Virus record (IMG/VR): IMGVR_UViG_3300010346_000749
Location: 1-64,000 of that record
Length of the DNA stretch: 64,000 nucleotides
Direction: 5' to 3' (one strand)
Origin: a virus
The notes beneath the pieces are model-generated. The model was not told the origin of the DNA. It searched no databases and saw only the letters and a list, made by a program, of their open reading frames with translations. A program made the translations under genes and the position numbers. Positions 12,659-63,939 of the stretch are shown here, piece by piece. Positions within the stretch are counted from its first letter, which is position 1. Each line of letters begins with the position of its first letter.

Positions 12659-12706
12659 TAAGCCGTATGGAAAGCCGAGAGGCAACTATACGGCTTAAAC
12701 TTTTTT
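12659..12706 (+). terminator. intrinsic terminator
   Basis: TAAGCCGTAT...ATACGGCTTA stem followed by AACTTTTTT. Confidence 0.75.
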
Positions 12707-12722
12707 AAAGGGTGATAAATAA

Positions 12723-13538
12723 ATGAAGAAAGTTGTAGATTTGAATTTCTTGACTTGTCCAAAAGAAGAATTGGAATTGCCAAGTAAAGGCAAGTTTTAT
12801 AAAGAAATGACATATAACAATATTCCAACGGGATTGGAAAAAGGTGTGATTCACATAAGACCTCTTTCTACAAAAGAAGAAAGAAATATGGAAAGAATTA
12901 ACTCAACTAATTTCTATAATATTTGGGCTGAAATAATTGCTTCCGTCACGGCAGAACAATTTGATCCTATGGATTTGACAATTTCTGATTTGTTTTATCT
13001 TATTTATTGGCTTCGTGCTAGAACATTTGGCCCTACTTATGAGATTAAAGCCGAATGTCCTAATTGTGGTGAAGAATATAATGATAGGGTAAATATTCCC
13101 GATTTTGGAACTGTTTATCTTGAAGATGATATTATTGAACCATTTGAATTGACCATGCCAAATTCTGGCGTCAGGGTCATTTTTAGATATCCAAGGGTCA
13201 AAGATTTGGTGGATGCATCCAAGAGAAACTATTCCGAGAAAAAGAAAAAGGGTGTCAAAATATCGCCAACAATTTACCAGAAGGTTCTTTGCACTCAAGA
13301 AATGGTTTTGCCAGATTCTACGGTTCTGACAAATGAAGAAGATTCAGAATTGATGATTGATATTTATTCTCGTATGCAAGCAGCTGATACTATGATGATT
13401 GATGAAGAATATGCCAAGTATGATCATGGATTGCTTGAACCTGTTATGAAGACGTGTCCAATGTGTGAAACTGTTTATGAACAGTTTCCAGTGATTTCCC
13501 CAGACTTTTTTCGCCCGAATTTTAGAAAGCCCAGATAA
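12723..13538 (+). CDS. putative tail assembly chaperone-like protein (by position), two CxxC pairs
   Basis: 271-aa ORF immediately upstream of the tape-measure gene; CPNCGEEY and CPMCETVY; 3' end overlaps an ATG-less open frame. Confidence 0.45.
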   Translation: MKKVVDLNFLTCPKEELELPSKGKFYKEMTYNNIPTGLEKGVIHIRPLSTKEERNMERINSTNFYNIWAEIIASVTAEQFDPMDLTISDLFYLIYWLRARTFGPTYEIKAECPNCGEEYNDRVNIPDFGTVYLEDDIIEPFELTMPNSGVRVIFRYPRVKDLVDASKRNYSEKKKKGVKISPTIYQKVLCTQEMVLPDSTVLTNEEDSELMIDIYSRMQAADTMMIDEEYAKYDHGLLEPVMKTCPMCETVYEQFPVISPDFFRPNFRKPR

Positions 13539-13761
13539 TGCAAAATTATTAAAAATATTTTATAGTTTCTTAACACCTTATGAACCAACTTCAATTGCTA
13601 ATTCAATAAGATCAGAAATATTGTTTCTTTCAAAGTTTGGTCATTTTGATGCTTTTCACATCTATTCAATGACACCACAAGATCGAAGATATTATATTGA
13701 AGAATTGAAAAGAATGTTGGATAAATCAGGTGGTCAAAATATTGAAGATGTTGATTTATAA
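13495..13761 (+). CDS. ATG-less +1-frame extension of 12723-13538 (G/GT-type frameshift product candidate)
   Basis: Frame +1 is open from 13495 to TAA 13759-13761 (FPQTFFARILESPDNAKLLKIFYSF...GGQNIEDVDL) with no start codon. It overlaps the T-run GAC-TTT-TTT-CGC (13503-13514) of the upstream ORF. Confidence 0.4.
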   Translation, partial: FPQTFFARILESPDNAKLLKIFYSFLTPYEPTSIANSIRSEILFLSKFGHFDAFHIYSMTPQDRRYYIEELKRMLDKSGGQNIEDVDL

Positions 13762-13762
13762 A

Positions 13763-13792
13763 ATAGAGCCTGAAAATAGGCTCTATTTTTTT
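13763..13792 (+). terminator. intrinsic terminator-like hairpin
   Basis: ATAGAGCC-TGAAAAT-AGGCTCTAT followed by TTTTTTT. Confidence 0.65.
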
Positions 13793-13846
13793 ATCTTCAA
13801 GAAATTAACATAGATAATATCCTCATGTCATAAAAGAGGGGTTTAA

Positions 13847-47107: not shown

Positions 47108-48184
47108 ATGAGTAATAGTAATGGATTCTTAGAATTAACAGATTTTAATTATTATAATATGATGAGACTGGGGCAGGCGAACTCCATCTGCAACAGGCGG
47201 GTGCATGCGCCGGCGCAGGTGTTCGGCGTTATGGACACAGGGACGCGCAGCGTCAACGGAGCCGGTTTGGAGTGGATCGACGAAAACGGAAACATCATCA
47301 CGCTGACCAAGGCGGACTTCGACGCACACCCCGCATTCAACTTCCCAGAGGTAATTGTGGGCGGAAACAGTTTCCGAAGCATTCCCATCGCCTACTGGAA
47401 GCGCGGCATAGGGCCGATCGGAAGCCACGCGGCTGGCAAATGGTGTATGTGGATCTCCGACGTTCCCCTCGACGGCTTCACCGCGAATCCGGGGGCGTTT
47501 AAGAGAAATGGGTCATGGCTCGATCGGTTCTTGTTGGGAACCTACAGGGCATTCAATAACGGCGGCGCGCCCGGTAGTCAGCCGGGAAAAACGCATTGGG
47601 GCAACGTGAGTTGGCAGGCGTTTAAAGACGCGGCCGCTGGGATCGGCGAAGGTCATCACATGATCAGTCTCCAGGAATGGCACGAGATCCTCGGCAGAGC
47701 CGTAATTGAGCAAAAAACCTTCCAGCTCGTACCGGAGGCAAGCCGCCAGAACGCTTCGCTGTGCAAGTATAGAGGCATAGAAGAATTTGCGTTTGACGGC
47801 TCGTACGGCTCGACGCACGCCGAATGGATGGACGGTGCGCGAACAGACGCAAGTGGGAAGTACGAGCTTTGGACTGAAGCAGGCGGGGATTACTCCTCGA
47901 CCGGAGTGACGTGCCCGCAGGACAGCGCGAGCGAAGCGACCTACTACAATCAAGGGCTTGTCACCGGCGGACTTTTCGATCATCTTTTCCTTGGGGCCTC
48001 CCTCGGTCCGGCATCTACGAGCTTTATCCCGGACTTCTCTGGGCGGAATCCGGGGCTCGTCGGCCGCATTTGCCGCTCGCACTTCTACGTCGGTCACGCG
48101 AGCAACGGTGCTTTCCACTCGTACTTCAGCGACTTGCCGTCGCTCGTCGACGCGAAGATCGGGTCCCGCCTCGCGAAGTGGTAA
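47108..48184 (+). CDS. receptor-binding-type protein with C-type-lectin/FGE-like fold, encoded by a G+C-rich insert
   Basis: 358 aa. The first 19 codons are AT-rich like the phage and the rest is abruptly G+C-rich. VSWQAFKDAAAGIGEGHHMISLQEWHEIL fits the FGE/CLec core W-x-x-A-x(7)-G-x-x-L-x-x-x-x-EW. The C-terminal IGSRLAKW resembles the GFR ending of DGR variable proteins. Confidence 0.6.
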   Translation: MSNSNGFLELTDFNYYNMMRLGQANSICNRRVHAPAQVFGVMDTGTRSVNGAGLEWIDENGNIITLTKADFDAHPAFNFPEVIVGGNSFRSIPIAYWKRGIGPIGSHAAGKWCMWISDVPLDGFTANPGAFKRNGSWLDRFLLGTYRAFNNGGAPGSQPGKTHWGNVSWQAFKDAAAGIGEGHHMISLQEWHEILGRAVIEQKTFQLVPEASRQNASLCKYRGIEEFAFDGSYGSTHAEWMDGARTDASGKYELWTEAGGDYSSTGVTCPQDSASEATYYNQGLVTGGLFDHLFLGASLGPASTSFIPDFSGRNPGLVGRICRSHFYVGHASNGAFHSYFSDLPSLVDAKIGSRLAKW

Positions 48185-48417
48185 TTCGGCCTTGGGATCT
48201 CGACTTTCTTTCCACCATTCTGCCGCTCGTCGTACATGAGATTGGACATTGGCTCGTGGCCCGGACACAGGCTGTGCTTCCATTTCGGTTGGGGCGCCTG
48301 CTCGGCGTGAGGCCTGCCACGTGTCCTGTGGACGATGCCGCCATGACCGTCACAGACGTGGAAGCGATGCATACAGCGGGGCACAATCATATAAGTAATA
48401 TAAAAATTTATAATTTT

Positions 48418-48437
48418 AACGAACGGGAAAACTACCA
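48418..48437 (+). repeat. copy of the 5' end of the structured intergenic element at the right edge of the G+C-rich insert
   Basis: ATAATTTTAACGAACGGGAAAACTACCA (48410-48437) matches ATAATTTTAGCGAACGGGAAAACTACCA at 12146-12173. Confidence 0.6.
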
Positions 48438-48448
48438 CATTTTGGCAC

Positions 48449-48685
48449 GTGAGTACATCTCCAGTGGCGGCCACAGTCTGGCTATCTGTTTATCGGGCTA
48501 CGACATTCGCCACAAACAAGGTTCGATTACAAACAAGAAATGCATACCCCGAGTGGCGGTTTATAAATGCAGAATTGTCAGTGAGTGTAAATACGACAAA
48601 TGGCATAGATGGTGATTGGATTACTATAAAAACAGGTATATCCATGAATGCGACGGCTGGTGGATGGATTGATATAGACATTTGA
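48449..48685 (+). CDS. beta-sandwich-like gene fragment (possible displaced C-terminus)
   Basis: 78-codon frame with GTG start, intermediate G+C; ...YPEWRFINAELSVSVNTTNGIDGDWITIKTG...GGWIDIDI resembles the end of a discoidin-type domain. Confidence 0.35.
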   Translation: MSTSPVAATVWLSVYRATTFATNKVRLQTRNAYPEWRFINAELSVSVNTTNGIDGDWITIKTGISMNATAGGWIDIDI

Positions 48686-48777
48686 TTAAATTTAGAAATA
48701 GACCCTTAAACATTGTTATCGTAAAATCTTAAAAATGAGAATTTTTAAACTGTATAATCAAAGGAGGTTGATTAAAA

Positions 48778-49290
48778 ATGTCAATTCGTGATGGTTTTAT
48801 TTCATCTTCTGTGATGGAGGTGTTGTTGCGGCAACCGAAGGTGGATGTTTCGAAGGTGGAAGTTTCATCTGTTTTTCCCCCTGTTATTGATTTTCAATTT
48901 TACTGCACTGGTGCATCCAGAACTTCTAATTATTGTGTAGAGTGTAGTCATGATGGTATCAACTGGACAAACATCAGCGGAGACAAAACGAGTCTTGTTC
49001 CTCTGACGTGGGCCTGGGCGGGGACTGGTGGCTTCCCCGCGACTTCGGCTCGTTTTTGGAGGTTAAGGGTTAAAGGATCACCCGTTTTAGGCGGGACTTG
49101 GAAAACAGAACTACGATTGCTATTGGAAGATGGGAATGGCTATACGCCAACCTTGGCACAATTATCAGAAGTAGGGATTACATATAACACTGGGTTCAAT
49201 AAATCACATCTAGTGAATGGAAACTTGGACGAAAATGTGTTTTATACTGGAACAACCAATATGACTATCACCATTGATTTAGAAGCATAA
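48778..49290 (+). CDS. discoidin (F5/8 type C)-like carbohydrate-binding protein
   Basis: 170 aa, RBS AAAGGAGG; ...SHDGINWTNISGD...SARFWRLRVKG... is the pattern also seen as NLNWSLAAG...KYWRFRVE in 49431-52871. Confidence 0.5.
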   Translation: MSIRDGFISSSVMEVLLRQPKVDVSKVEVSSVFPPVIDFQFYCTGASRTSNYCVECSHDGINWTNISGDKTSLVPLTWAWAGTGGFPATSARFWRLRVKGSPVLGGTWKTELRLLLEDGNGYTPTLAQLSEVGITYNTGFNKSHLVNGNLDENVFYTGTTNMTITIDLEA

Positions 49291-49370
49291 AGGGAGCGTG
49301 AAAACATGGCACGAGTTTCAAACGTTTCAACCACGGTTATCAGCGCCATCAAAAACTATTCATTCATCTG

Positions 49371-49407
49371 ATATAGGCATCAAATATTGGTGCCTATATC
49401 AATTTTT
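49371..49407 (+). terminator. intrinsic terminator-like hairpin
   Basis: ATATAGGCA-TCAAATATTGG-TGCCTATAT followed by CAATTTTT. Confidence 0.55.
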
Positions 49408-49430
49408 AACAAAATGAAAGAAGTGATAAA

Positions 49431-52400
49431 ATGAATTTAAATGGATTAAAATTCTATGATCATTCACCAGATAAATTGAATTCATTTTTACGTGAAAATT
49501 ATTTACATGGGAAAAATATTGAACATGATATTCCCATTGTAGAAGATGATCCCTATAAGATAACGAGCGATACAGTTTTTCTTTTGAAGTTGAATAACAC
49601 AAGAACAGATGAATGTGGAAATATTTGGACATTTTCTGTTCCACAAACATTTGCCGCAACCCCGTTGCCACCTATTAGTGGGATTACTCATGTATTAAAT
49701 TATTCAACATTCAATAGTAGCTATGTTGAATGTACAAGTTTAGCAGGAAATGCTATTGGAACAGGTGATTTCACTGTTGATTTTTGGGCATATACTTCTG
49801 GCCAAACTCCGGATTTTTACCCTTTTACCTGTATTGGTCATTATAGTGGACCAAATCATAGTGGATCATTAGTAAATAGATTTGGTTCAGTATTTTATTC
49901 TAATGGATATGGTCTTTGGTGTGAACGTACAAAAGCAAAAAATCTTAATCATTGGAGGATGTTGTCAGGATGGCATCATTATGCTATTGTCAGAAGATCA
50001 GGAGTCGGATATCTCTATAGAGATGGAATTGAACTAGAACAAATTGCTGATTATACTTTTTCGGCTTTATCTGGATTTTCGTTCGGAGCTTATTCAACCG
50101 ATGTTCTTGAACCTGTTTTATTAAGTCATTATCGTCTTTCTAGAACAGCATTATGGAATGCCAATTTTGTTCCTCCTGGCGTTAAGGTTCAAGGAAAAGA
50201 ATATGCTCCTACTAAATTCGGAATGTCATATAGTGGCAGTTCAACTGCAAATGAAGTTTGGTGTGTTGAATATTCGGATGATAATCTAAATTGGTCTTTA
50301 GCTGCAGGAAGATTTAAACCAAATCAAGCTGGTTGGAATTACATAACATGTCCTAATTATGGGAATAAGAAATACTGGAGATTTAGAGTGGAAACACAAT
50401 CGAATGGTGAATATCTGAATGAGGTTTCAATTGGAAACGGACAGAAAAAACAACATGTGAATAAAAGAGGGCCATGGAAAGCTTTTAAGATTGTTGGTAT
50501 GTCTCAATATCATACCACCAACAACTGTTATTATATTCAAAACGGAGAAACGCAATGGATAGAAACCGCTGGTGGAACTACTCAATGCACAGGTGGAACT
50601 CCTTTTGCTTCTAGTAATGATAAATATGATCCAATTGCAAAAGCATTTGACTCATACATATCAACGTATTGGTTAACACAAGCCTCAGCTTCACCATCAG
50701 AAATTACGGCAGGATATATTCTCTCAACACCAAAGAAACTTTATTCGATCAAGCTATACCCGAGGGGTAACTGCTCTTGTATGAATTGGAAAAATTTTAG
50801 TATTTATGGAAGTAATGATACAACAAACGGAACTGATGGGACGTGGTATTTATTATTAGATAATCAAACAACTTCATCGACAGTCGATGAATGGTCGGAA
50901 CACATTATTCCTGATGTTATTATTCCTGATGTTATTGGCTTTACCTATTCTCTTTCAACAGACTGGATAACATCAAATATTTCTGGAACTCTAGCAAATC
51001 TAATAGATGGAACAACTGGAACAACACAGGCGGTTTGTCAAAATCAGCCCGTTAATACCCACATAACATTTGATTTTTCTCAACAAATTTTTCCAACTGA
51101 AGCAACAATTACAGAATGGAGTAAACTGAAACACACGAACAAACTCAAATACTGGTGGCCATTGAATGATAAACCAGACGAGGTTATGCAATATCTAAGG
51201 TGTCTGGTTCATGGGACTGTTCCATTTGATCAAGATTATGGTGCTCAATTTTCAAATGAAACCTGTATCACTACTGATATTTTAACGATGCCAACAAAAC
51301 TAACACTTCTCTGGTGGATGAGACCAGATTCAACAATGTTCAATTCTGGCAATATTACCGATCCTATTGGTGCACCATCTGGAAGTGCTACAACTGGTTA
51401 TCATTGGGGCCCAAGGTATGAAGCAGCAGGAAATCTTGTTCAATTCAATGGTGGCACTTCATGGCCTACAAATTCATCCGAATTTAACACAACAAACTAT
51501 CCTACAACTAGACTAACACTTTGTGCCTTGGTCTTGAATAGAAACGGGTCATCTTCGACAGTTTCATACTATCGAGCTAATTCAACAAATACTGCTATGG
51601 TTCAAGTAGGATCAACTACTACTTACACTGATGCTACTCCTAGAACTCTCTTTTCTATTGGGATGTCAGAAAGACTAGCTGTAAATCTTGTAGATCAAGT
51701 TAAACATTTCAATGGATATATTAGAGATGTCAGAATTTATGAAAGAATTCTTTCCTTGGCCGACATTGAACTGATACGAGCTGCTGGCCCAGTAAATGAT
51801 TTCATTTCAGAAACAGAAGAACCATTAGATTCATATAAGTGTATTAAATTTCTTGGGACGTATAATACAACTAATGATGGTTGTGGAATGAATGAAATTG
51901 AAATTCTTCCTGTAGTTGGTGGTACTGATCAGTGTGAAGGTGGAACTATTTTAAGTAGTGGAGATTTACCAAATTATAGTAAAGAATTCACATTTGATGA
52001 TTTGATAGGATCGCCAACACAAGTTTGGTATGGCCCGAATAGTGGAACTTCTGCCTGGATTGCATATAAAAAAGATGCCGGTATTATTCCAAAAGTTATA
52101 AGATTTTATGGTGAAAACTGGGGCGACCCAACAAGATACCAATTCAAGAATATGCAAATCCTTGGAAGTAATAACACGACGACTGGTTATGATGGAGATT
52201 GGGAAATACTTGGGAATACTGGTAAAGTATATCATCAAGAATGGAAGAATTACACTATTATTAAAAGAAAAACATTAGCATTTTCTTTTGATTCCTTTTT
52301 AATTCACAAATGGTTATTGACAAACAATGGTAATGATGCTATTGGTAATTGGAATTTTCCTAGGAATTTTGTTAATAATGGAGCAGTCTCTTTTGGTAGT

Positions 52401-53859: not shown

Positions 53860-53863
53860 TAGA

Positions 53864-53893
53864 AGACGGCTCAATGAGCCGTCTTTTTATTTT
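53864..53893 (+). terminator. intrinsic terminator closing the virion module
   Basis: AGACGGCTC-AAT-GAGCCGTCT followed by TTTTATTTT. Confidence 0.8.
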
Positions 53894-53940: not shown

Positions 53941-56082
53941 ATGTTATGGATTAGTCTATTTGTTGTTATTAGTATTGTGTTGTTTATCTTTCTAATTATT
54001 TTAAATGTGGGGAATATACAAAAGACCAATCATAAAATAGATGATTTAGAACAACTTGAAAAGAAAAAACTTGAAATGAAAGAATTAGAAGACCATCTTA
54101 AAAAATTAGCTGAAATCAATATATCTTACTCTAAAGAATTGGATACATTTACTGAATTTCATGAAACCGTTTTAAAAAAATCATCTGATTTAGAGTTGCA
54201 ATTCAAAACTCTTTTTAATAATTCTCCAATTGGAATATGCCGAGTGTCTATAAGTGGAAAATATATTTACGCAAATTCTGCTTTAGCTAGAATGTTAGGC
54301 TATTTTGATGCCACTGAATTGACAAGTCTTGTTCAGAATACATCAGAACAAATATTTATGTTTCCAGATGAACGAAAAAGAGTTATTAAAAAACTTTCCA
54401 TTAAACCTTATGAACCAGTTTTAATTGAACATGAATTAAAAAAGAAAAATGGAACTTCCATATTTACAAGATGCAAGTATATGGGAGTATTAAATGAAAG
54501 AGAACAATTATCTTATATGGATGTTATAATAGAAGATATTTCTGATTTAAAGAAAAAAGAACAAGAGTTATATGATCAAAATGACATGATCATGGAATTA
54601 TTAAAAGAACAACAAGAAATGAATGATCATTTAGACAAACAGGTTAAAGAGAGAACAAAAGAATTAGAGAAAAAGAGATATGAATTAGAAAAGATGAATC
54701 ATGAATTATTAAAAATGAAAAATCTTTTTGAGAACATGTATAAGAAAGCTCCAATTGGATTATTTAGATCAAGTATTTCAACTGGCAAATTTCTTTCTTG
54801 CAATGATGCAACTGCTCATATATTTGATGTAAGAAATGCTGACGAATTTCTTAAAATAGTTAATGCTTTAGATATTTGGGGAAATAAAAAAAGAAGAGAT
54901 GAATTAATAGAACATTTTAAAAATCTTCCTTCAATGACTACCTATAATCATATTGATTATTGCCAAACACCAATATCTAAAAAAGAAAGATATGTATCTG
55001 TTTCAGAACTTGCCAATTTTGATGATGATTATTTTGAAGGAGCATTTATTGATGTCACGGAAGAGTATTTAGCTAAAAAGAAACTGGAAGAAATGAATAA
55101 AAATTTAGCTAAAATTGTTAATGAAAGAACACACAATCTAATTGAACAATATGCTTATACTCAACAATTAATATCAGAATTGGAAGAATCAAATAATCTT
55201 CTCAAAATAAAAACAAATAATCTTGAATTAAATCAATTAAAATTAAAATCTATCATAAAAACAATTCCTGACAGTATTATTGTTTGCAAAATAAATGGTA
55301 AAATAACCGAATCATATAATATTCCAATGAATTTATTTCATGGGGATCCAATCGATTCAATTTTATCTTTATTCAATTTAGATAATTCTTCTTATTTAAT
55401 AAAATGTTTTGAAAAAATTATTCAAGAACATCATCCTGAAATTCAAAGTGGTATGATAAAAGAATTATTTAATAATCAAATCAGTTGGTTTGAATATAAT
55501 ATTTTTAAAATGAATTCCGATCATGTTATTTTAGTTTTTAGAGATATTACTTCGAGAATGCAGACAAAAACATTATTAGATTCAATATTACAGTCAACAC
55601 AGATTCTTTTAACTAAGAAGCCTTTTGAATGTGCTTTGTATGAATCTCTTGAATGGTTTGGTAAACTCAACAATGTTCAACGGGTATTTGTTTATAAAAA
55701 TGAGGAAGATTCCTATATGAGTTCATTGGTATCAGAATATCATGAAGACCATCTTTTTGATTTAAACAAAGATCAAAATAGACAATTGGATTATCTAAAA
55801 ATGTCTAATGACCTTTCAATTTATAATCAATTAAAACAGGGGAAATGTGTTGAATTTATTATGAAAAATGAAGACCATGAAAAAATTCCAATAGTTGAGA
55901 GATTGAAACATAAAGGAGTTAAATCTATTTTATGTGTTCCTATTATTTTTCAATTGGATTTCTTAGGATATTTAGGAATTAGTGATTATGTATCAGATAG
56001 GATTTGGTCAGAGACTGAAAAACAAACATTATTGACATTTGCAACTAACATTGGTTTGATGATGGAAAAGGAGAATTTTTGA
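53941..56082 (+). CDS. membrane-anchored sensor protein: TM, coiled coil, three PAS-like domains, C-terminal GAF; no output domain
   Basis: 713 aa. N-terminal TM LWISLFVVISIVLFIFLIILNV. PAS starts at LFNNSPIGICRVSISGKYIYANSALARMLGY, MYKKAPIGLFRSS and IIKTIPDSIIVCK. GAF-type ending CVPIIFQLDFLGYLGISDYVSDRIWSETEKQTLLTFATNIG. Confidence 0.7.
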   Translation: MLWISLFVVISIVLFIFLIILNVGNIQKTNHKIDDLEQLEKKKLEMKELEDHLKKLAEINISYSKELDTFTEFHETVLKKSSDLELQFKTLFNNSPIGICRVSISGKYIYANSALARMLGYFDATELTSLVQNTSEQIFMFPDERKRVIKKLSIKPYEPVLIEHELKKKNGTSIFTRCKYMGVLNEREQLSYMDVIIEDISDLKKKEQELYDQNDMIMELLKEQQEMNDHLDKQVKERTKELEKKRYELEKMNHELLKMKNLFENMYKKAPIGLFRSSISTGKFLSCNDATAHIFDVRNADEFLKIVNALDIWGNKKRRDELIEHFKNLPSMTTYNHIDYCQTPISKKERYVSVSELANFDDDYFEGAFIDVTEEYLAKKKLEEMNKNLAKIVNERTHNLIEQYAYTQQLISELEESNNLLKIKTNNLELNQLKLKSIIKTIPDSIIVCKINGKITESYNIPMNLFHGDPIDSILSLFNLDNSSYLIKCFEKIIQEHHPEIQSGMIKELFNNQISWFEYNIFKMNSDHVILVFRDITSRMQTKTLLDSILQSTQILLTKKPFECALYESLEWFGKLNNVQRVFVYKNEEDSYMSSLVSEYHEDHLFDLNKDQNRQLDYLKMSNDLSIYNQLKQGKCVEFIMKNEDHEKIPIVERLKHKGVKSILCVPIIFQLDFLGYLGISDYVSDRIWSETEKQTLLTFATNIGLMMEKENF

Positions 56083-57137
56083 TGAAATGTTGTAAACATC
56101 TAACAATTAGACAAAAATTATATTTTAGTTTGGTATTTACTTTTTTCATTTCATTCTTGTTAATCTTTGTTATTGGAAATCTTTATATTGAATTATCCTT
56201 TAAAGAATCTGATGAAAAATTACTTCAAAAAGAAATGAATTTGGCATCTCTTATCATTGGAAATTTTCAAGATAAAATTGATAGTTTTGTATATGATTAT
56301 GCGCATTGGGAAGAAACATATAAATATACTTCTAATGATAATAAAGAATTTGTTAATAGGGAATTGTTAAATAATTTTACTATTTCATCAAATTATATTG
56401 ACATATTACAAATCATTTCTGTGAATGGAGATATTCTTTTTCAATATGATTACACAATATTGAAAACTGGAATACCAAAAGAATTCTTAACAGTTAATAA
56501 ACAATTCATTAATAATAAAAACGATAGTTCTATTTCTGGATATTATTTTGTGGAATCAAGAAATGAAATGTATTATATTGTTTCATATCCAATTGTTTGC
56601 CCAAAACATAAAGAATATCCAACTAAAGCTAGTTTGGTTGGTATTGGTAAATTGAATTGGAATAAAATATTTCCAAGAGGCTTTTCACTTTTTGATTCAA
56701 CAATTGATTTTCAATTTAAACCTCCATTTGATTTGAAACAAAACATGAAAATTCAAAATACACAAGGTCAATTATTTTCAGAATATATTTTAAAAGATGT
56801 TCAGGATAGACCCGTTGGTAAAATTCAATTAACAAAATCATTTGAAATCAAAAATACTTTAGATTCATTTTTTACCTTAATAATGTTTATTTTCTTAATA
56901 GTTTTTATTTTTTTTCTAACACTTCTTTTTTACTTTTTCATTTCCATTTTTAGGAAAATTAATCAGGTTTGTCTCATCATATATGAAATTAATAATATGG
57001 GATCATTAGATGAAATTGAAAATCTAAATATTCAAGAAAAACAATGTCAGTTCGACAATAAAAATGAATTTGAATTTTTAGATTGCCAACTTTATAAAAT
57101 GATTAATAAATATTTCAATAAGGGAAGACATATCTAA
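56082..57137 (+). CDS. membrane protein with CHASE4-like extracytoplasmic sensor domain
   Basis: Two TM segments flank a domain beginning ...FQDKIDSFVYDYAHWEETYKY, the D-Y-A-x-W-[DE]-x-x-Y hallmark of CHASE4 (from memory); ATG overlaps the upstream TGA. Confidence 0.5.
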   Translation: MKCCKHLTIRQKLYFSLVFTFFISFLLIFVIGNLYIELSFKESDEKLLQKEMNLASLIIGNFQDKIDSFVYDYAHWEETYKYTSNDNKEFVNRELLNNFTISSNYIDILQIISVNGDILFQYDYTILKTGIPKEFLTVNKQFINNKNDSSISGYYFVESRNEMYYIVSYPIVCPKHKEYPTKASLVGIGKLNWNKIFPRGFSLFDSTIDFQFKPPFDLKQNMKIQNTQGQLFSEYILKDVQDRPVGKIQLTKSFEIKNTLDSFFTLIMFIFLIVFIFFLTLLFYFFISIFRKINQVCLIIYEINNMGSLDEIENLNIQEKQCQFDNKNEFEFLDCQLYKMINKYFNKGRHI

Positions 57138-57138
57138 A

Positions 57139-57930
57139 ATGAGCGATAGATTTTGGGAATTTTTAGAAACGGTTCTTAAAAAGGATAAGGATGTTTTTCT
57201 AGCGATAATCTTTTTGGCAATCCCCCTTGGTTTATTAGGTTTTGGGATTATTACACCTGATCATTTTTTCAGTTTAGAAAAACCAGTCATAATCTTTTTT
57301 ATCATATCATTTATTCTAATACTATTCTTTTTCATTTTCGTTAGAATAAATAAAATTTTAAAAGTTGTTGGAGAAGGTTCATCATCAAGTCGAGCCTCAT
57401 CACCTGAATATACACAAATTGTACAATTAATGACTGAAATCTCAAAATACTTAAATGATCGACATGATGAAAATTTAAAATTGGTCACACAAATGATTCA
57501 AGTTCAACAGGCTCTTAAAAAGATGCCTAGTAAAAAACAAATCATTATGATGGTCGAATATGGATTAATGACACTAACATTTAACCTAATAGAAACCTTA
57601 ATAGCTTTTTCAAGACAAAATGTGAATCTTATACAAAATCAAAATACTCAACAAAATTTAATTCGAAAAGCAGAATTAGACATTAGTGATGCAAAAAATG
57701 AATTTTTAAAAATCATTAATGTTCATTTAAACAGGTTGGTATCACCTGAAATATATTCACAAATGGAATATGAATTAGATCAATATTTAACGGACACTGT
57801 TAGAATTATTTTACGTGATCAAGCAAATCTTGAAGATAAAATTATAAATATCAATCTTCTTGCAAGAACTCTCTCAAACAATATTTTAGGTTTAATTGCA
57901 AATAATTTGAAATGGCCTGACGAGGATTGA
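57139..57930 (+). CDS. membrane protein, helical C-terminal domain
   Basis: 263 aa, two N-terminal TM segments; one nt after the upstream stop. Confidence 0.55.
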   Translation: MSDRFWEFLETVLKKDKDVFLAIIFLAIPLGLLGFGIITPDHFFSLEKPVIIFFIISFILILFFFIFVRINKILKVVGEGSSSSRASSPEYTQIVQLMTEISKYLNDRHDENLKLVTQMIQVQQALKKMPSKKQIIMMVEYGLMTLTFNLIETLIAFSRQNVNLIQNQNTQQNLIRKAELDISDAKNEFLKIINVHLNRLVSPEIYSQMEYELDQYLTDTVRIILRDQANLEDKIININLLARTLSNNILGLIANNLKWPDED

Positions 57931-58946
57931 TGGTTATGACTTCGACAAATTTATTAATAATCTTGTGTGTTGTAATAATTGTTCTTTTAATTATTGGCTA
58001 TAATTCCAATGAAGACAATAATTTTAACAAAAAGAAAAAGAACATTGAGGAAAAAAAGAAAAGAAAGGATGACCTCAATGTTATTAAGAACCTAACAAAA
58101 GAAATAGCTCAAAAGGATGAACAATCAACTCAATTAATTCAAGAATTTCTCAAAAGAGAAACTGCTTCAATCATAATGAGTGAAGAGAAAAATAGATTTT
58201 ACGAATCAATTATGGATCACACATCTTCACCAATTTATGTTCAGGATATGAAAGGAAAATTTATTTTAATAAATAAAGCTTTTACAGAAATGTTTAAAAT
58301 AAATAAATCAGAACTTGATCTACAAAAATATAACAATACTAATTTTCTAAATAGGCTTCTTACGGATTTTGACATGCATGAAAATCTTTTGTCTGATGCT
58401 TTTGTATTTGATTATAAAGAACCAACTTCTTGTTTATTTCAATTGACAAATGGAAAGGTTATTACCATTAAAAAAACCTATTATCAAAATTCTGTGATGG
58501 AATCTTTTCTAATTGGTATTATTAGTGATATTTCAGAACTACACAAAGAAAAGGAAGCTGTTTCTTATGAAAAGAATATGTTAGAACTGATTCTAGATTC
58601 ATTACCATTACCAATTTTCGTGACAGATGAAAACCTCATTGTTCTTAAAGTTAATAAAACACTGTGTGAATTATTTGGAAAAGAAAAGTCTGATTTCATC
58701 AATACGAAATATTGTTGTAAAGATATGTTTCAGTGTGGCCAATGTAATCCTTGCCAAATTGATGAAAAACAAGAATTTTCTGAGAAGATATTTTTAAATG
58801 GTCAATTAATAGAACAAAAGAGATATGTTATTATTATTAGTAAAGCATTTTTATTGAATGAAAACAAACATTTTGTAATTTCAATGTTTGATAAAAAACA
58901 CGAGTATGGACTTTTTCAGAATTGCGGTGATTCAAACCATGATTAA
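57930..58946 (+). CDS. membrane-anchored double PAS-like protein with Cys cluster
   Basis: TM, then PAS starts at IMDHTSSPIYVQDMKGKFILINKAFTEMF and ILDSLPLPIFVTDENLIVLKVNKTLCELFG; cluster YCCKDMFQCGQCNPC; ATG overlaps the upstream TGA. Confidence 0.6.
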   Translation: MVMTSTNLLIILCVVIIVLLIIGYNSNEDNNFNKKKKNIEEKKKRKDDLNVIKNLTKEIAQKDEQSTQLIQEFLKRETASIIMSEEKNRFYESIMDHTSSPIYVQDMKGKFILINKAFTEMFKINKSELDLQKYNNTNFLNRLLTDFDMHENLLSDAFVFDYKEPTSCLFQLTNGKVITIKKTYYQNSVMESFLIGIISDISELHKEKEAVSYEKNMLELILDSLPLPIFVTDENLIVLKVNKTLCELFGKEKSDFINTKYCCKDMFQCGQCNPCQIDEKQEFSEKIFLNGQLIEQKRYVIIISKAFLLNENKHFVISMFDKKHEYGLFQNCGDSNHD

Positions 58947-59547
58947 GTATCTTAGAGAAAAAATATCATTCTTATTTTTGATCATCATTTCAATATCTTT
59001 TTTATTGTTGAATGGAATGAATCATATTGAAGCTTATAATAAGTATGCTAAATCAGTTTGGAAAAACAATTATTCCTTTATTTTAGAATCAACTTCTAAG
59101 AACATTTCAAATTACATTCAACTCAATAAAAACATTAAACCATTTAATGAAAGTCTTAAAGAAGCTTTAATATATTATGTCAAAAGTTTTTCTCTTCATG
59201 ATTCATATACAAATTTCTTTTTTTATGAAACACAAGAGAATGATTTGATAAATGATTCTTTTATTGATCAATTCAAAGATAAGATTTATTATAAATTAGA
59301 AAATGATCCAAATGATATTATCAAAATGTCATCAATAGAAAATTATCTAATACTAACACAAAAATTTATGTTATTGGAAAATAAAACTGTCTTATTGGGT
59401 ATCTTAATTACACAATCAGATTTAATTGAATATTCAAATACTTATCTTTTTATTGATAGAGAAATCAATAATATTTTCTTCTTTGGAATATTTATTATTT
59501 TGTTAATTCTCTATGATTATTATCTATATGTGAAAAATGAGGGATAA
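58939..59547 (+). CDS. bitopic membrane protein
   Basis: In-frame ATG 58939 (MIKYLREKISFLFLIIISISFLLL) overlaps the upstream stop region; second TM at the C-terminus; track start 58888 is a TTG. Confidence 0.5.
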   Translation: MIKYLREKISFLFLIIISISFLLLNGMNHIEAYNKYAKSVWKNNYSFILESTSKNISNYIQLNKNIKPFNESLKEALIYYVKSFSLHDSYTNFFFYETQENDLINDSFIDQFKDKIYYKLENDPNDIIKMSSIENYLILTQKFMLLENKTVLLGILITQSDLIEYSNTYLFIDREINNIFFFGIFIILLILYDYYLYVKNEG

Positions 59548-59550: not shown

Positions 59551-59880
59551 ATGGCAGATTTTAAACTAGAATTACTTGTTCAAGTAGCATTAAATCAAGA
59601 ATCAACTGTTTTATATACTGTTCCAAATGGAAAAACCTGTATTATAACAGAATGTATTTTATGTAATACTTCACCGAATGATGTAAATATTTATCAGTCT
59701 TTCGTTAAAAGGGCTGAAGGACTTAGCACTAAAAATACAATTATTAAAGATTTAACCCTTAAACCAAATGAAACTTATCGAATGACATTTAGCACATTTC
59801 TTGCCCCATATACGACAATTAGAATGCATGCAACAGAAGAGAATGTTGTCTCTTGCCAAATATCTGGAGTTCTGATATAA
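59551..59880 (+). CDS. hypothetical protein
   Basis: 109-aa ORF 3 nt after the previous stop. Confidence 0.55.
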   Translation: MADFKLELLVQVALNQESTVLYTVPNGKTCIITECILCNTSPNDVNIYQSFVKRAEGLSTKNTIIKDLTLKPNETYRMTFSTFLAPYTTIRMHATEENVVSCQISGVLI

Positions 59881-59895
59881 TAGGGAAGGCATAAT

Positions 59896-60192
59896 ATGTT
59901 TAGGTCAATAAATCAAAGATTATCAAATGATACAACAAGATTACAAGAACCTATTGTTATTGATCAAAATGTTCAGGGGATTAAAAAAGGTAATGGTTTG
60001 TTTGCTGGAAATAATTTAGAAACTGTAATTGCACATGGTTTGGGATATGCCCCAAAATACGTAAATGTAATTCCAATAAATAATCCTCAAGGGACTTTGG
60101 GCGAAATATGGACACGAATGGATCAAACAAATATTTATGTTGGGAATACTGGAACATTTACAGGTCAATTTGTTTGGATTGTAATTAAATAG
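59896..60192 (+). CDS. hypothetical protein
   Basis: 98-aa ORF, RBS GGGAAGG; TAG stop, second TAG two codons later. Confidence 0.55.
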   Translation: MFRSINQRLSNDTTRLQEPIVIDQNVQGIKKGNGLFAGNNLETVIAHGLGYAPKYVNVIPINNPQGTLGEIWTRMDQTNIYVGNTGTFTGQFVWIVIK

Positions 60193-60207: not shown

Positions 60208-61716
60208 ATGGATTTATCCACAGTTGAAAAAATATATCAACAAGATTATAAATCAGTTCCAATTATGAATTCGACATATATTATTACTGGTAAATGTAGT
60301 CTTGCATGTAAATATTGTTTTGAGAGAGGTATGCCTGCTTCAAAAAGAAAGGACATGTCCAGTCAAGTAGCTATTCAAGGAATGGAATTTCTTTTTGAAA
60401 ATTCAAAACATATGCCAAATAATAGATCAATTTCAATTATGTTGTTCGGCGGAGAACCAACAATGAATCCACGAACAATTATTAGTCTAATAAATCATTA
60501 TAAAAATAATATTAAACCAAGATATCCAAATAGAAATTTTAGCATGAATATTATCACGAATTGTTGTCAATTATCAGATGAACTTTATAATTGTTTTCTT
60601 GAGAATGCACAATTAATAAATCTTTCTTGCCAGGTGTCAATTGATGGCATGCCAGAGATTCAAGATTTAAATAGAATACAGCCAAATGGAAAAGGTTCTT
60701 CTCATTTAATTCCAGATACATTAAATAAATGGAAACATATTTTTAAACATGATCCAAAACGATTGAATGTTCATGGGTGTTGCTCACCTGAAACCATTTC
60801 TTATTTATATGAAAATTATTGTTATTTTAAAGATGTTTATGGAATTTCCCAAATTTGGTTTTTACCAGTTCCAGAATTGGATTGGAAACCAGAACATGTA
60901 AAGATTTATGATGAACAAATGAATAAAATTTACCATGATGTTCTCAATGACGTTAAAAAAACTGGCGATGTTAATCAAGCATTCTGTTATGCTCCTTTAG
61001 ATAGATTTATGTCATGTGATTTTCCAGATAAACCTTGTGGAGCTGGAACAGATTATTGCACAATAACACAAGATGGAGATTTATTTCCTTGCCATCAACT
61101 TTATTTTTGTGATAAAGAAAATGAGACATGCATGGGAAATATTTGGGATGGTGTTGATGATGACAAAAGAAGAATCTTTTTAGAGTATGATAGTTTTGAT
61201 TTAACCTGTCCATCTTCATGTGATCATGGAGCTTGTTATAGATGTTTTGCTTCCAATTATCAAAATCGTGGATCAATGTTATCTCAAATAAGAGGATATT
61301 ATTGTTCGATGATGAAAATAGATCAGAAATATGAAAGAATGTTAAAGGAGGAACTTTTTAAAATGGGACTATTAAATGGAGAAAATATGAACCACAATCC
61401 AAATTGTCTATGTGATTCTCGTGGCGATCAAAATGTTTGCCATAAAGAATGTAATGGAGAATGCCAGGGGGAATGTGGCAATGAATATTGCCAAGATGGT
61501 TGCCACGATTGCCATTGCGGAAGTGAAGATCAACATATTAAATCTCAATGGCAAGATAAAGTTTGTAATTCTGAATTTGAAATAGATACATTTACTGATG
61601 AACAGGGTAATGAAATTACAATTAAGAGGCGAAAGAAACAAACCAATATTGATGAAGCTATTAATATTTTGTCTCAAGCATTCAGTGAAGTTATTAAATT
61701 ACTTCAACAGAGGTAA
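60208..61716 (+). CDS. radical SAM enzyme with SPASM-type auxiliary cluster domain and Cys/His-rich C-terminal tail
   Basis: CSLACKYC (CxxxCxxC), LFGGEPT, SIDG. Then CGAGTDYCTITQDGDLFPCHQ and CPSSCDHGACYRC, typical of SPASM/anSME-like maturases. Tail CLCDSRGDQNVCHKECNGECQGECGNEYCQDGCHDCHCG. RBS AAGGAG. Confidence 0.85.
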   Translation: MDLSTVEKIYQQDYKSVPIMNSTYIITGKCSLACKYCFERGMPASKRKDMSSQVAIQGMEFLFENSKHMPNNRSISIMLFGGEPTMNPRTIISLINHYKNNIKPRYPNRNFSMNIITNCCQLSDELYNCFLENAQLINLSCQVSIDGMPEIQDLNRIQPNGKGSSHLIPDTLNKWKHIFKHDPKRLNVHGCCSPETISYLYENYCYFKDVYGISQIWFLPVPELDWKPEHVKIYDEQMNKIYHDVLNDVKKTGDVNQAFCYAPLDRFMSCDFPDKPCGAGTDYCTITQDGDLFPCHQLYFCDKENETCMGNIWDGVDDDKRRIFLEYDSFDLTCPSSCDHGACYRCFASNYQNRGSMLSQIRGYYCSMMKIDQKYERMLKEELFKMGLLNGENMNHNPNCLCDSRGDQNVCHKECNGECQGECGNEYCQDGCHDCHCGSEDQHIKSQWQDKVCNSEFEIDTFTDEQGNEITIKRRKKQTNIDEAINILSQAFSEVIKLLQQR

Positions 61717-61723
61717 TTTTTAA

Positions 61724-62632
61724 ATGATGAAACGAGTTGAAACGTATGTTGTATATGTATCCGGCAGATGTAATTGCAATTGTCATTATTGTTATCTTAA
61801 AACTGGTGGGTTGAACCCAAAACTCGATTATGATTTTGATACAGATATTAAACCATTATTGGACAACATCAAGAAATCTACTGAACCATTTGTAATTGAA
61901 TTTCTTGGTGGTGATCCGATTGTAGATGACTTATCTGTTTTAAATTTAATCAAAACGGTTAATTATTTTCCAACTGGTCAGCCTTTCATTATTACAACAA
62001 ATGGAACAAGGTTGCCAAATGAAATACTCGAATTGTTAAAATCAAATCCAAATATTTATTGGGCGGCTTCAATGGATGGAACAAAGTGGGCTAATCAATT
62101 GAGAATTACCAAAGATGGATATAATACTTATGATTTGGTAATGGAAAATATTAAGACTCTTAAAATGAATAATATTCCTGATAAACAAATTGGCATTCAC
62201 TTAATTACACATCCTTATAATATTGCTTTTCTGGAACAAAGTATTGATCATCTTTACAAAAAAGGCATTAGAAATTTTGGAATTGGAACAGTAGAATCTA
62301 CCATGAAGATAGGATATGAATATTGTTCTAGATTCATATATGAATTGAATCAAGTTTCTACCAATATTTGCAATGGTAAATATCCTGAAATTGGTATTGA
62401 TTTATTTAATGGTATTAAACCAAGAGAAGATATCAGGCAATATATACACGATGGTAATGGAAATATTATTGGTGAATCTTATGGAAGAAATAAAGATGAT
62501 TTTACACAAACTGATACTTTTAATGTTCAAAAATGTGATAATACAAAGAGAAATTTAATTCAAGAAATTCGTGAAGAAGTCTATTGGAATCATCAAGATA
62601 ATCTCAAAAAGAGGCTCTTTCATAATAAATAG
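61724..62632 (+). CDS. second radical SAM enzyme (no SPASM extension)
   Basis: CNCNCHYC (CxxxCxxC), FLGGDP, ITTNG, SMDG; 7 nt after the previous stop. Confidence 0.8.
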   Translation: MMKRVETYVVYVSGRCNCNCHYCYLKTGGLNPKLDYDFDTDIKPLLDNIKKSTEPFVIEFLGGDPIVDDLSVLNLIKTVNYFPTGQPFIITTNGTRLPNEILELLKSNPNIYWAASMDGTKWANQLRITKDGYNTYDLVMENIKTLKMNNIPDKQIGIHLITHPYNIAFLEQSIDHLYKKGIRNFGIGTVESTMKIGYEYCSRFIYELNQVSTNICNGKYPEIGIDLFNGIKPREDIRQYIHDGNGNIIGESYGRNKDDFTQTDTFNVQKCDNTKRNLIQEIREEVYWNHQDNLKKRLFHNK

Positions 62633-62643
62633 GGTGAATTTTA

Positions 62644-63897
62644 ATGGCAATTTTAATAGCAAATGAATTTTTTCTAAAACAAATTTTAGAAATGGCCAAA
62701 AGAAGAAAAGGACATACCATTTCGGATATAGATAACCAATGGGAGTCTTTGGATAAATTAAAAAACCTAATAAATAATATGGTTCAAAATAGAATTCAAA
62801 CACAAGATATCTGTCATTGCAATGTTAGAACATCTTCATGTGATTGTTTTAATAGAAGTTCAACAGTTTCAACATGTCTTTGTAATTTAAGAACAGTTGG
62901 ATGTGAATGTCAGGGGCGAATTATGGTTTGCCCCTCTCATTCACCAACACCATATTCTAATACTTCTATTAGTTTAAAAGAATTGCAAGATAAGGTAAAA
63001 TCATTAAGAGGTCAAACATTGAATAATTATCCATATCCCGGATGTTCTTGCCAAAATAGAACCAGCGACCCTATTTGCACTTGTCAAACTCGAACTGGAA
63101 CATGTAATTGTGTTTCTCGAACACCGTCTGCAGATATATGCATTTGTAATATTTATGCGTGTGTTTGTGTTTCTAGAACAAGTGTGCCGGGGCAATGGGG
63201 AGAACAATGTTATGAATATGCTCCAAGATATAAAGATTGGCCAACCAATTTTCCATCTGGAGGAAATCAAGGATGGGATAGTTCTTGGACTGTTAGTGGA
63301 CAATATATTTATGATGTTTGTCAATGTAAGGTTCGGACTATCCATCAACATGCATGTCATTGCAATTACAGAACTGGATTATGTCATGCTGTATCGACAT
63401 GCCCATCAGACAATATTAATGTTCCAGGTAGCACTTATTGTCAGTGTAATTGTTATCAATGGCCAAGTGGGCCACATTGTGAGTGTAAGTATCGTGTAAG
63501 TGGGTGTAGAGAACAAGAAAGATGCACGTGCAATATGAGATCACCCTGTTCAAAAGATTTAAAATTTCCAGGCACTGCAAGTCAGATCTGTTTAGTTTCC
63601 CCCTCGGCAACTTGCACAAATAGGTCGTATGATGGTGCACCATCATGCCCAAGTTTTATGCCAACTGGAACAGGTATTGGCGGATCAGATGATGAAGCAT
63701 CTTCTATGTGTAATACAGTTTCAAATAATAGTCCACGATGTGATTGCCAGTCAAGAACTCCAACAACACCAGTTTGTAATTGCAACTTACAAAATCCATG
63801 TGATTGTGTTTCAAGAACTTATACTGATCCACATATATGCAATACGAGATGTGGATGCAATGTTGTTTCAACATATGATACCATTATTAATGATTAA
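62644..63897 (+). CDS. Cys-repeat protein: about 18 units of C-x-C-(N/Q/V)-x-R-(T/S)
   Basis: 417 aa. Examples are CHCNVRT, CLCNLRT, CSCQNRT, CTCQTRT, CNCVSRT, CVCVSRT, CQCKVRT, CHCNYRT, CTCNMRS, CDCQSRT and CDCVSRT. Starts 11 nt after the radical SAM gene; terminator follows. Confidence 0.8.
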   Translation: MAILIANEFFLKQILEMAKRRKGHTISDIDNQWESLDKLKNLINNMVQNRIQTQDICHCNVRTSSCDCFNRSSTVSTCLCNLRTVGCECQGRIMVCPSHSPTPYSNTSISLKELQDKVKSLRGQTLNNYPYPGCSCQNRTSDPICTCQTRTGTCNCVSRTPSADICICNIYACVCVSRTSVPGQWGEQCYEYAPRYKDWPTNFPSGGNQGWDSSWTVSGQYIYDVCQCKVRTIHQHACHCNYRTGLCHAVSTCPSDNINVPGSTYCQCNCYQWPSGPHCECKYRVSGCREQERCTCNMRSPCSKDLKFPGTASQICLVSPSATCTNRSYDGAPSCPSFMPTGTGIGGSDDEASSMCNTVSNNSPRCDCQSRTPTTPVCNCNLQNPCDCVSRTYTDPHICNTRCGCNVVSTYDTIIND

Positions 63898-63907
63898 ACA
63901 ACTTAAA

Positions 63908-63939
63908 TTAGGCTAGGATAATTTCTAGCCTAATTTTTT
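63908..63939 (+). terminator. intrinsic terminator
   Basis: TTAGGCTAG-GATAATTT-CTAGCCTAA followed by TTTTTTA. Confidence 0.8.

Follow-up and report, generated by a model that had tools for sequence, protein, structure and literature searches.

A coupled five-gene unit in the late region of a T4-like phage

We analyzed a window of 64,000 nucleotides from the 183,498-bp contig of an uncultured, T4-like phage of virulent type, found in metagenomes of sludge and anaerobic digesters. On the plus strand, positions 53941-59547 hold five consecutive ORFs, encoding protein 1 (713 aa, 53941-56082), protein 2 (351 aa, 56082-57137), protein 3 (263 aa, 57139-57930), protein 4 (336 aa, 57936-58946, or 338 aa if the ATG at 57930 is the start) and protein 5 (202 aa, 58939-59547). 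The ATG of gene 1 is preceded by a strong AGGAG ribosome-binding site. The genes that follow are translationally coupled, through a TGATG overlap between genes 1 and 2 (56080-56084), a 1-nt gap between genes 2 and 3 (57138), a second TGATG overlap between genes 3 and 4 (57928-57932) and a ATGATTAA overlap between genes 4 and 5 (58939-58946). An earlier note, drawn from the letters of this DNA, had described the same five ORFs and junctions, and the coordinates and all four junctions proved correct. The overlapping or abutting start and stop codons imply co-expression in fixed ratios. Hydropathy likewise recovered the N-terminal membrane segment that had been reported for all five proteins and predicted a second segment in proteins 2, 3 and 5.

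The operon adjoins virion genes, and the unit to which it belongs lies in the late structural region. Upstream, an intrinsic terminator on the plus strand (53861-53887; a 12-pair stem with six GC pairs, followed by a T run) closes the tail-fibre genes, and the sensor unit begins 54 nt further on. The five genes had been placed between two strong terminators and the radical SAM block; the scan recovered a single terminator directly before the genes, and the next one is at 63905-63936 (plus strand, 14-pair stem followed by a T run), past the radical SAM genes. No terminator-like site of comparable strength occurs between 53887 and 63905. The sole other match of the terminator scan in that interval is a weak 7-pair stem at 61214-61231, inside the first radical SAM gene. 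The rest of the terminator-bounded unit, also on the plus strand, comprises two small proteins of 109 and 98 aa (59551-60192), which always follow the five genes, then a pair of radical SAM peptide maturases and a Cys-rich repeat protein of 417 aa (60208-63897). Both small proteins are very strongly conserved (dN/dS about 0), and their order is retained in a second phage lineage; the 109-aa protein weakly matches phrog_1276, a family of unknown function. The maturases match the PapB family (1.1e-45 and 1.7e-21), and the repeat protein contains 48 Cys and 13 C-x-C-x2-R-[TSV] repeats.

Comparison with a 93%-identical relative gave dN/dS ratios of 0.11-0.28 across the five genes (0.15 for protein 1, 0.12 for protein 4 and 0.11 for protein 5), indicating that they are under purifying selection. 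The second lineage carries the five genes in identical order at 35-53% protein identity (47% for protein 3, 53% for protein 4 and 36% for protein 5). Together, these ratios and the retained gene order argue that the operon is not a product of chance. One could still ask whether the block consists of decaying, functionless fragments of a captured host sensor gene, since both lineages show a higher AT content in the block than in its flanks, and the domain set resembles a CHASE4-PAS sensor minus the output. The selection ratios and the order conserved in the second lineage effectively refute this reading, to which we assign almost no weight; reading frames are moreover intact in relatives, and dozens of intact variants occur across samples.

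Sensor-type domains in proteins 1, 2 and 4 and two orphan membrane proteins

Profile searches support the PAS, GAF and CHASE4 assignments made earlier by eye, with one exception in protein 1. This protein is predicted to consist of a membrane anchor (residues 2-25), a coiled coil, PAS1 (85-203), a signalling helix, PAS2 (258-375), a further signalling helix, a PAS3-like segment (434-540) and a GAF domain (about 545-713). PAS1 is matched by PAS_8 in Pfam (1.7e-11, 44 bits against a cut-off of 21.8) and by TIGR00229 in NCBIfam (6e-14, residues 86-210, 52.2 bits against 22.9), and the GAF domain by PF01590 (2.3e-5, residues 566-706, 25.3 bits with the cut-off at 22.4; 24.5 bits in the second lineage). 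Residues 258-375 are probably a second PAS domain: PAS_8 scores below its 21.8-bit cut-off in both the window copy (14.6 bits) and the second-lineage copy (21.6 bits), but hhalign pairs the segment with PAS1 at 93.9% probability (E 1.5e-7), and BLASTP aligns it with the PAS repeats of a kinase. Of the three PAS domains and GAF-like end that had been proposed for this ORF, PAS1 and the GAF domain are thus borne out by Pfam and PAS2 by profile-profile comparison, and PAS3 finds no sequence support. Residues 434-540 have no Pfam match, reach an hhalign probability of 0.1% against PAS1, and in a PDB profile search yielded only a 25-residue match to the FixL N-cap (E 0.5). In the structure model this segment shows two strands, helices and three strands, a PAS-like order, but at a pLDDT of 30-40. 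The model of protein 1 as a whole (mean pLDDT 42) matches PAS/LOV structures at E about 1e-7. Its closest cellular relatives share about 32% identity over one PAS domain only, so the protein gives no sign of imitating a specific host kinase.

Protein 4 has a predicted membrane anchor, a charged coiled coil and two PAS domains (PAS1, about 85-203; PAS2, about 210-320), as had been suggested; PAS_8 (3.5e-14, 52.5 bits), PAS (9e-13, 48.7 bits) and TIGR00229 (5.9e-13, 49.1 bits) each match two stretches, and both domains score above cut-off. Within PAS2 lies the cluster C261-x5-C267-x2-C270-x2-C273 (58716-58754, plus strand). It had been described as starting with a CC pair, the first residue of which, C260, is not conserved; the four cluster Cys and C244 are invariant in 15 of 15 sequences, the second lineage included. 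We regard the four Cys as a candidate site that probably binds a metal or an iron-sulfur cluster, zinc being equally possible, and their invariance within a PAS domain suggests that the input is redox state or a metal. The kinase NreB is an iron-sulfur PAS oxygen sensor with the Cys spacing C-x2-C-x11-C-x2-C. By analogy, the four Cys of this cytoplasmic PAS domain, spaced differently (C-x5-C-x2-C-x2-C), could hold an oxygen-labile cluster.

Protein 2 matches CHASE4 (PF05228) both in the window (8.9e-11, 42.5 bits) and in the second lineage (2.8e-11, 44.2 bits), above the cut-off of 26.2 bits, and the DYAHWEETY motif that had suggested this domain does lie between its two membrane helices (residues 13-31 and 264-282). 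With its positively charged N-terminus, the protein is predicted to expose the CHASE4 domain outward and to end in a conserved cytoplasmic tail of 61 residues with the motif KNEFEFLDCQLxKM...GRxI. The tail resembles HAMP by eye only: Pfam gave no HAMP (PF00672) match at E <= 1, and an hhalign comparison with four HAMP sequences returned 0.2%.

Proteins 3 and 5 are orphans. In protein 3, two membrane helices (20-38 and 50-68) precede a predicted cytoplasmic domain, helical throughout, whose final part is a four-helix bundle (132-256). Its AlphaFold model (mean pLDDT 66, and 75-85 within the bundle) has no significant structural match in the PDB or BFVD, and as modelled the domain is a generic four-helix bundle without an enzymatic fold. 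Family searches, Pfam, NCBIfam, PHROGs and PADLOC among them, gave no match, and relatives were confined to one cluster among 1.84 billion representatives. In protein 5, helices at 9-27 and 179-197 are predicted to flank an outward-facing domain of about 150 residues, the C-terminus following about 5 residues on; it matches neither families nor the PDB.

Between the two lineages, the ectodomains are among the least conserved parts (36-38% identity, with 38% for that of protein 2), and the best-conserved segments are all cytoplasmic, namely PAS2 of protein 1 (75%, the highest value), the tail of protein 2 (56%) and the bundle of protein 3 (56%). The pattern fits changing inputs combined with a conserved transmission surface. 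The same domains might instead build a non-sensory membrane scaffold, in which PAS, GAF and coiled coils serve as oligomerisation modules for assembly, DNA entry or exit, or phage exclusion. PAS is a common dimerisation module, proteins 1 and 4 consist largely of long coiled coils and membrane anchors, and virion genes lie next to the operon. We nevertheless consider a scaffold improbable: the invariant four-Cys site suggests cofactor binding, ligand tracking accounts better than a scaffold for the rather low conservation of the ectodomains, and CHASE4 has an established role in extracytoplasmic sensing (PF05228; PMC12625894).

The search for output domains

In the window copies, neither Pfam nor NCBIfam detected HisKA, HATPase, GGDEF, EAL, HD-GYP, MCPsignal or HTH at E <= 1, and Pfam detected none of these families in the second-lineage copies at the same threshold. 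Kinase, cyclase, phosphodiesterase, chemoreceptor and DNA-binding domains were thus missing from both lineages at E <= 1, in agreement with the motif inspection in the earlier note, nor did either lineage show signs of a degenerate kinase or cyclase. The NCBIfam kinase matches on the five proteins cover PAS regions only. Among PHROGs, no match was better than E 0.001. All of them are confined to coiled coils or membrane anchors and seem to reflect composition: the best, at exactly 0.001, links part of a coiled coil in protein 1 to a 'peptidase' family, and the charged coil of protein 4 has a likewise compositional Rz-like match (E 0.002).

The premise that such input domains are normally fused to outputs proved softer than had been assumed. 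Some cellular relatives of protein 1 do carry HisKA_3/HATPase or GGDEF/EAL outputs, but the protein search also returned output-less cellular proteins with the same input domains. One is a 914-aa Methanospirillum protein that, like the phage set, combines CHASE4 with several PAS domains, and another a 681-aa PAS-only protein. The former is encoded by one gene rather than by a five-gene viral operon, and the output-less 'PAS domain S-box proteins' of cells, also PAS sensors without an effector, are single genes as well.

An output could also be encoded elsewhere in the 183-kb genome, as a phage kinase, cyclase or regulator that receives the signal; the operon would then be part of a split but self-contained phage signalling pathway. 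In favour of this, our inspection covered the 64 kb of the window and 10 kb downstream, so about 110 kb could encode a cognate output, and cellular relatives of protein 1 carry such outputs. Bacterial signalling partners are usually encoded side by side. No signalling output was found among the scanned ORFs of the window or in the 10 kb downstream, and the block conserved in both lineages contains no partner; we therefore give this possibility only a small chance.

Proteins with inputs and no output might, alternatively, act as ligand sinks, their GAF and PAS domains sequestering an immune signal or second messenger of the host. Many GAF domains are cyclic-nucleotide binders, and phages do encode sponge proteins such as Tad1, Tad2 and Acb2. 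The known sponges are small, soluble and abundant, whereas the present proteins are large, membrane-anchored and partly outward-facing, and none of the five matched a PADLOC model. We judge sequestration to be quite improbable.

A possible membrane-bound accessory sensor complex

The note had suggested that the proteins plug into host signalling proteins, or sense redox state or small molecules to time infection decisions. Neither finding that would have overturned its reading, a degenerate output domain or a failure of the domain assignments as a whole, emerged, and the proposed function is plausible, with indirect support from trans-acting accessory sensors known elsewhere, from the invariant Cys of protein 4 and from ectodomains that are less conserved than the best-conserved cytoplasmic segments. 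The reading we prefer, with a probability of about 40%, is that the products of the five genes form an accessory sensor complex in the membrane, with several inputs and no enzymatic or DNA-binding output of its own, which acts on host signalling by contact. On the outside would be the CHASE4 domain (protein 2) and the orphan ectodomain (protein 5); on the cytoplasmic side, the PAS-PAS-(PAS)-GAF array (protein 1), the four-helix bundle (protein 3) and the PAS-PAS pair (protein 4). Ligand or redox changes would pass through the membrane helices and coiled-coil signalling helices and be read out by direct protein-protein contact. The surroundings would thus probably be sensed via protein contacts and not by the phage's own enzymes. 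The most likely target would be a host membrane histidine kinase or c-di-GMP enzyme, re-tuned during infection; phage membrane proteins could be targeted instead.

Cellular systems offer partial precedents for action in trans. IsmP (PA2072) of Pseudomonas aeruginosa is a CHASE4 protein that inhibits the cyclase ImcA by binding, an inhibition relieved by iron on CHASE4 (PMC10904736). Like protein 2, it has a periplasmic CHASE4 domain between two membrane helices (PMC10904736, PMC12625894), and its CHASE4 ligand controls binding to a partner enzyme, as might by analogy be the case here. However, IsmP is a single polypeptide that keeps PAS-GGDEF-EAL, whereas the phage CHASE4 protein ends in its 61-residue tail and the PAS domains reside on separate proteins. 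Sequence similarity between the two is at family level only; the best match of the protein 2 profile in the PDB was a 9p50 chain ('Diguanylate cyclase', E 0.17, about 75 residues). YycH and YycI, two membrane-anchored proteins without outputs, expose domains to the outside, come from one operon and tune the histidine kinase WalK by direct contact (PMC7355866). The phage set resembles them in its anchoring, outward-facing domains, joint operon and missing outputs, and tuning by contact would be a further parallel. YycH and YycI are, however, cellular, have their partner kinase in the same operon and lack cytoplasmic PAS/GAF arrays; no sequence similarity to the phage proteins was found. The structures that best match the protein 1 model are those of short LOV proteins such as PpSB1-LOV. 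These, too, are stand-alone PAS sensors without an effector, but they are soluble, single-domain flavin photoreceptors, and the LOV-type NCRFL motif was not seen by eye in PAS1 of protein 1. Among phages, VqmA of vibriophage VP882 is a phage-encoded PAS receptor that reads a chemical cue (PMC8284805). It is soluble and has its own DNA-binding output, which none of the five proteins has.

If the target were the phage's own membrane proteins, for example the holin, the operon would be a module for lysis timing or superinfection sensing. In T4, a periplasmic signal is sensed by the antiholin RI, which has no classical output domain and itself binds holin T. All five proteins are membrane proteins, two with outward-facing domains, and protein 3 shares the two-helix, N-in, C-in topology of class II holins. 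The position of the unit is also suggestive, in the late structural region and ending at the 63905-63936 terminator, just past which the lysis cassette starts. This cassette, outside the window and read from locus L016, encodes a two-helix membrane protein (holin candidate), a glucosaminidase (endolysin) and spanin-like proteins. Yet the lysis genes lie about 4.4 kb away from the sensors, with five unrelated genes in between, nothing resembles lysis or antiholin families in PHROGs beyond the compositional Rz-like match, and five large multi-domain proteins far exceed the needs of known antiholins. We find such a module unlikely.

Phage environmental sensing has, to our knowledge, been documented mainly for temperate phages, through soluble receptors with their own DNA-binding outputs (VqmA, arbitrium). 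Our further proposal, put forward tentatively and with more doubt than confidence, is that a virulent T4-like phage carries its own multi-input sensory complex, which docks on host signalling enzymes or on the phage lysis machinery and couples environment or redox state to infection decisions. Assembled from five separate polypeptides, such a complex would represent a viral counterpart to three-component signalling. At the level of families, proteins 3 and 5 represent two new families of orphan membrane proteins, and PAS2 of protein 4 a new four-Cys PAS variant. If the accessory-complex reading is true, a conserved, output-less membrane sensor set in a large virulent-type phage would represent another sensing route, in which the phage imports only the input side of bacterial signalling and borrows the output side from its host.

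Conservation and genomic setting of the five genes

Five genes on the + strand (53941-56082, 56082-57137, 57139-57930, 57936-58946 and 58939-59547, encoding proteins 1 to 5) follow one another closely, stop codons overlapping or adjoining the next start codons, in exactly the layout that the earlier note had described. Compared with L010, a 93%-identical relative, dN/dS values are 0.15, 0.14, 0.28, 0.12 and 0.11 for proteins 1 to 5. All five ORFs are intact in L010 and essentially equal in length, except for protein 4, whose C-terminus is shorter. In a second lineage (L014 and the fragments L005-L008), gene content and order are retained over seven genes, namely the five and two small downstream genes, and the five proteins there are 35-53% identical to those of the window. 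DNA similarity between the two lineages extends into the first radical SAM gene. The gene upstream of the five differs from that of the window and encodes an RCC1-repeat protein in the second lineage, so the conserved unit starts at protein 1. In both lineages the five genes have a lower GC content than the DNA on either side (21-28% vs 29-36% at 53941-59547 in the window; 17.5-22.5% vs 25-30% at 1769-7336 in L014). The idea that these are captured genes in decay is refuted by the dN/dS range of 0.11-0.28, the intact ORFs, the order kept in the second lineage and the dozens of >90% identical variants present in public assemblies.

An intrinsic terminator at 53861-53887 precedes the genes, where two strong ones had been reported. 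Transcription probably continues, as judged from the terminator scan, to a terminator at 63905-63936, in which case the unit would take in two small proteins, two radical SAM maturases and a Cys-rich repeat protein of 417 aa. The small proteins (109 and 98 aa; 59551-60192) lie 3′ of the sensor genes in both lineages and have dN/dS near zero; the 109-aa protein weakly matches phrog_1276. At 60208-63897 lies a pair of PapB-like radical SAM peptide maturases, of which the second lacks the C-terminal SPASM portion of the profile. After them comes the 417-aa protein, which contains 48 Cys and 13 C-x-C-x2-R-[TSV] repeats and may be a very large phage-encoded thioether-crosslinked substrate. Judged by terminator positions, this block belongs to the same transcription unit as the sensor genes. 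An RNA-family search of the window returned tRNAs only, with no riboswitches or other regulatory RNA families.

Directly past the window end lies a lysis cassette, read at 4640-6572 of the locus L016. Its products are a membrane protein with two helices (149 aa), a glucosaminidase (188 aa), a protein with an anchor and a coiled coil (136 aa) and a coiled-coil protein with a signal peptide (167 aa). They include a spanin-like pair, a hint that the host has an outer membrane. Proximity to these lysis genes is the one observation in favor of a module that times lysis by acting on the phage holin, a role that we consider unlikely for the five proteins.

Domain content and membrane topology

Protein 1 (713 aa) comprises a membrane anchor, a coiled coil, PAS1, a helix, PAS2, a helix, a 107-residue segment and a C-terminal GAF domain. 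The matches of PAS1 and GAF exceed curated cut-offs, which bears out the GAF assignment made by eye. PAS2 falls slightly under the Pfam cut-off and is homologous to PAS1 in a profile-profile comparison. The structure model has a mean pLDDT of 42 and still matches PAS/LOV structures (E about 1e-7); the strands and helices of the 107-residue segment (residues 434-540) follow a PAS-like order in this low-confidence model only, and given the pLDDT a third PAS stays unverified. Of the five PAS domains that had been counted, PAS1 and the two of protein 4 hold, and PAS2 is a probable PAS domain through its homology to PAS1, while sequence support for the one at residues 434-540 was not found.

Protein 2 (351 aa) consists of a helix, a CHASE4 domain, a second helix and a conserved 61-residue cytoplasmic tail. 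A profile search recovered the CHASE4 domain that had been recognized by its motif. The tail looks HAMP-like by eye, and a HAMP domain was supported by neither Pfam nor hhalign. Protein 3 (263 aa) has two membrane helices and a cytoplasmic helical domain that ends in a four-helix bundle, predicted with pLDDT 75-85. An exhaustive HMMER search of 1.84 billion representatives found a single cluster of relatives, the sister-lineage copy. The predicted bundle has no significant match in the PDB or BFVD; below significance, the top PDB entries are generic four-helix bundles, for instance the ligand-binding domains of chemoreceptors.

Protein 4 (336 aa) carries an anchor, a charged coil and two PAS domains. 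Five of its cysteines do not vary across 15/15 sequences, second lineage included: C244 and the cluster C261, C267, C270 and C273, which is a probable metal or iron-sulfur site. C260, adjacent to C261, is variable. Protein 5 (202 aa) is made of a helix, ∼150 outward-facing residues and a second helix, shortly after which the protein ends. It matched no family, and homology of its ectodomain to CHASE4 was not supported. Sequence and profile searches of the PDB gave no significant match for any of proteins 1 to 5.

Going by the charged residues that flank the predicted helices, the CHASE4 domain of protein 2 and the protein 5 domain would face outward, and the cytoplasmic side would hold the PAS and GAF arrays together with the tail of protein 2 and the bundle of protein 3. 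Between lineages, identity is 38% in the CHASE4 ectodomain and 36% in that of protein 5, as compared with 75% in PAS2 of protein 1, 56% in both the protein 2 tail and the protein 3 bundle, and 53-56% in the PAS domains of protein 4. We infer from these alignments a pattern of variable inputs and a conserved cytoplasmic transmission surface. The five proteins could also form a non-sensory scaffold, which seems rather improbable, or act as a ligand sink, which is very unlikely.

The phage and its relatives

The phage is tailed, with a T4-type baseplate and tail-fiber module. The window encodes a tape measure, gp25, gp6-like and gp53-like baseplate proteins, a tail-fiber network protein, DUF4815 and LamG fiber proteins and ThyX, and carries a tRNA array. 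Its proteins were found on a 183,498-bp metagenomic contig and on many short contigs, some titled as activated-sludge metagenomes. DNA and protein searches with the sensor region, proteins 1 and 2 and the 109-aa neighbor found no relatives among GenBank phages, and neither did scans of IMG/VR in which the queries were proteins 1, 2 and 4 and the same neighbor. Searched against 5.8 billion proteins, proteins 2 and 3 matched this phage and one sister lineage only. By sequence comparison, the phage is remote from all GenBank and IMG/VR phages. Neither of two proteins compared identifies the host: for the baseplate protein, identity to known phages reaches 28% at most, and the sole match of the ThyX thymidylate synthase (11335-12051) among species-representative genomes is a Gastranaerophilales genome bin, at 46%.

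GC content rises to 42% at 46000-50000, against ∼32% window-wide, over tail-fiber-like genes at 45332-48184, which suggests recent exchange of a receptor-binding module. The first 13.8 kb (1-13800) are poor in long ORFs and hold a tRNA array, with nine tRNAs found by ARAGORN and two more by Rfam (331-395 and 7603-7669); no sign of stop-codon recoding was seen there. Two minus-strand ORFs in the tRNA region (1105-1854 and 6647-7381), the second of which overlaps it, have weak zinc-finger-type matches (TRASH, zf-FCS) and may be spurious.

Missing output domain and possible action in trans

Searches against Pfam and NCBIfam (E <= 1) found no kinase, ATPase, GGDEF, EAL, HD-GYP, chemoreceptor signaling or DNA-binding domain in the window copies of the five proteins. 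The second-lineage copies likewise lack an output domain in Pfam, and PADLOC and PHROGs added nothing further. The claim that these sensors have no output therefore survives profile search, with no degenerate kinase or cyclase uncovered and no failure of the PAS, GAF and CHASE4 assignments, and the earlier interpretation of a sensor operon is partly supported. A cognate output could be encoded in the 110 kb of the phage genome outside the inspected DNA, although we find this quite unlikely.

In cellular organisms, the relatives of protein 1 are multi-PAS kinases and GGDEF-EAL proteins whose similarity is confined to one PAS, at best with 32% identity over 150 residues. Input-only cellular proteins are also among the matches, such as a Methanospirillum protein with CHASE4 plus PAS, so a missing output is unusual but not unique. 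A recent origin by capture of some identifiable cellular gene was rejected, as the best match covers a single PAS and the Methanospirillum protein is only distantly similar.

The most likely explanation, to which we assign a probability of about 0.4, is a trans-acting accessory sensor complex. Signals would enter through the ectodomains and the PAS and GAF domains, including the probable metal or iron-sulfur site, and would be passed by direct contact to a host membrane signaling enzyme. Short LOV proteins, which are stand-alone PAS sensors, offer a precedent for sensing without an output of one's own. For control by contact, the CHASE4 protein IsmP binds and inhibits the cyclase ImcA in a ligand-controlled manner (PMC10904736), and WalK is tuned by YycH and YycI (PMC7355866). 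The five genes thus bring known kinds of signaling proteins together in an unusual carrier and arrangement, and several parts of the sensor system are open to biochemical testing.
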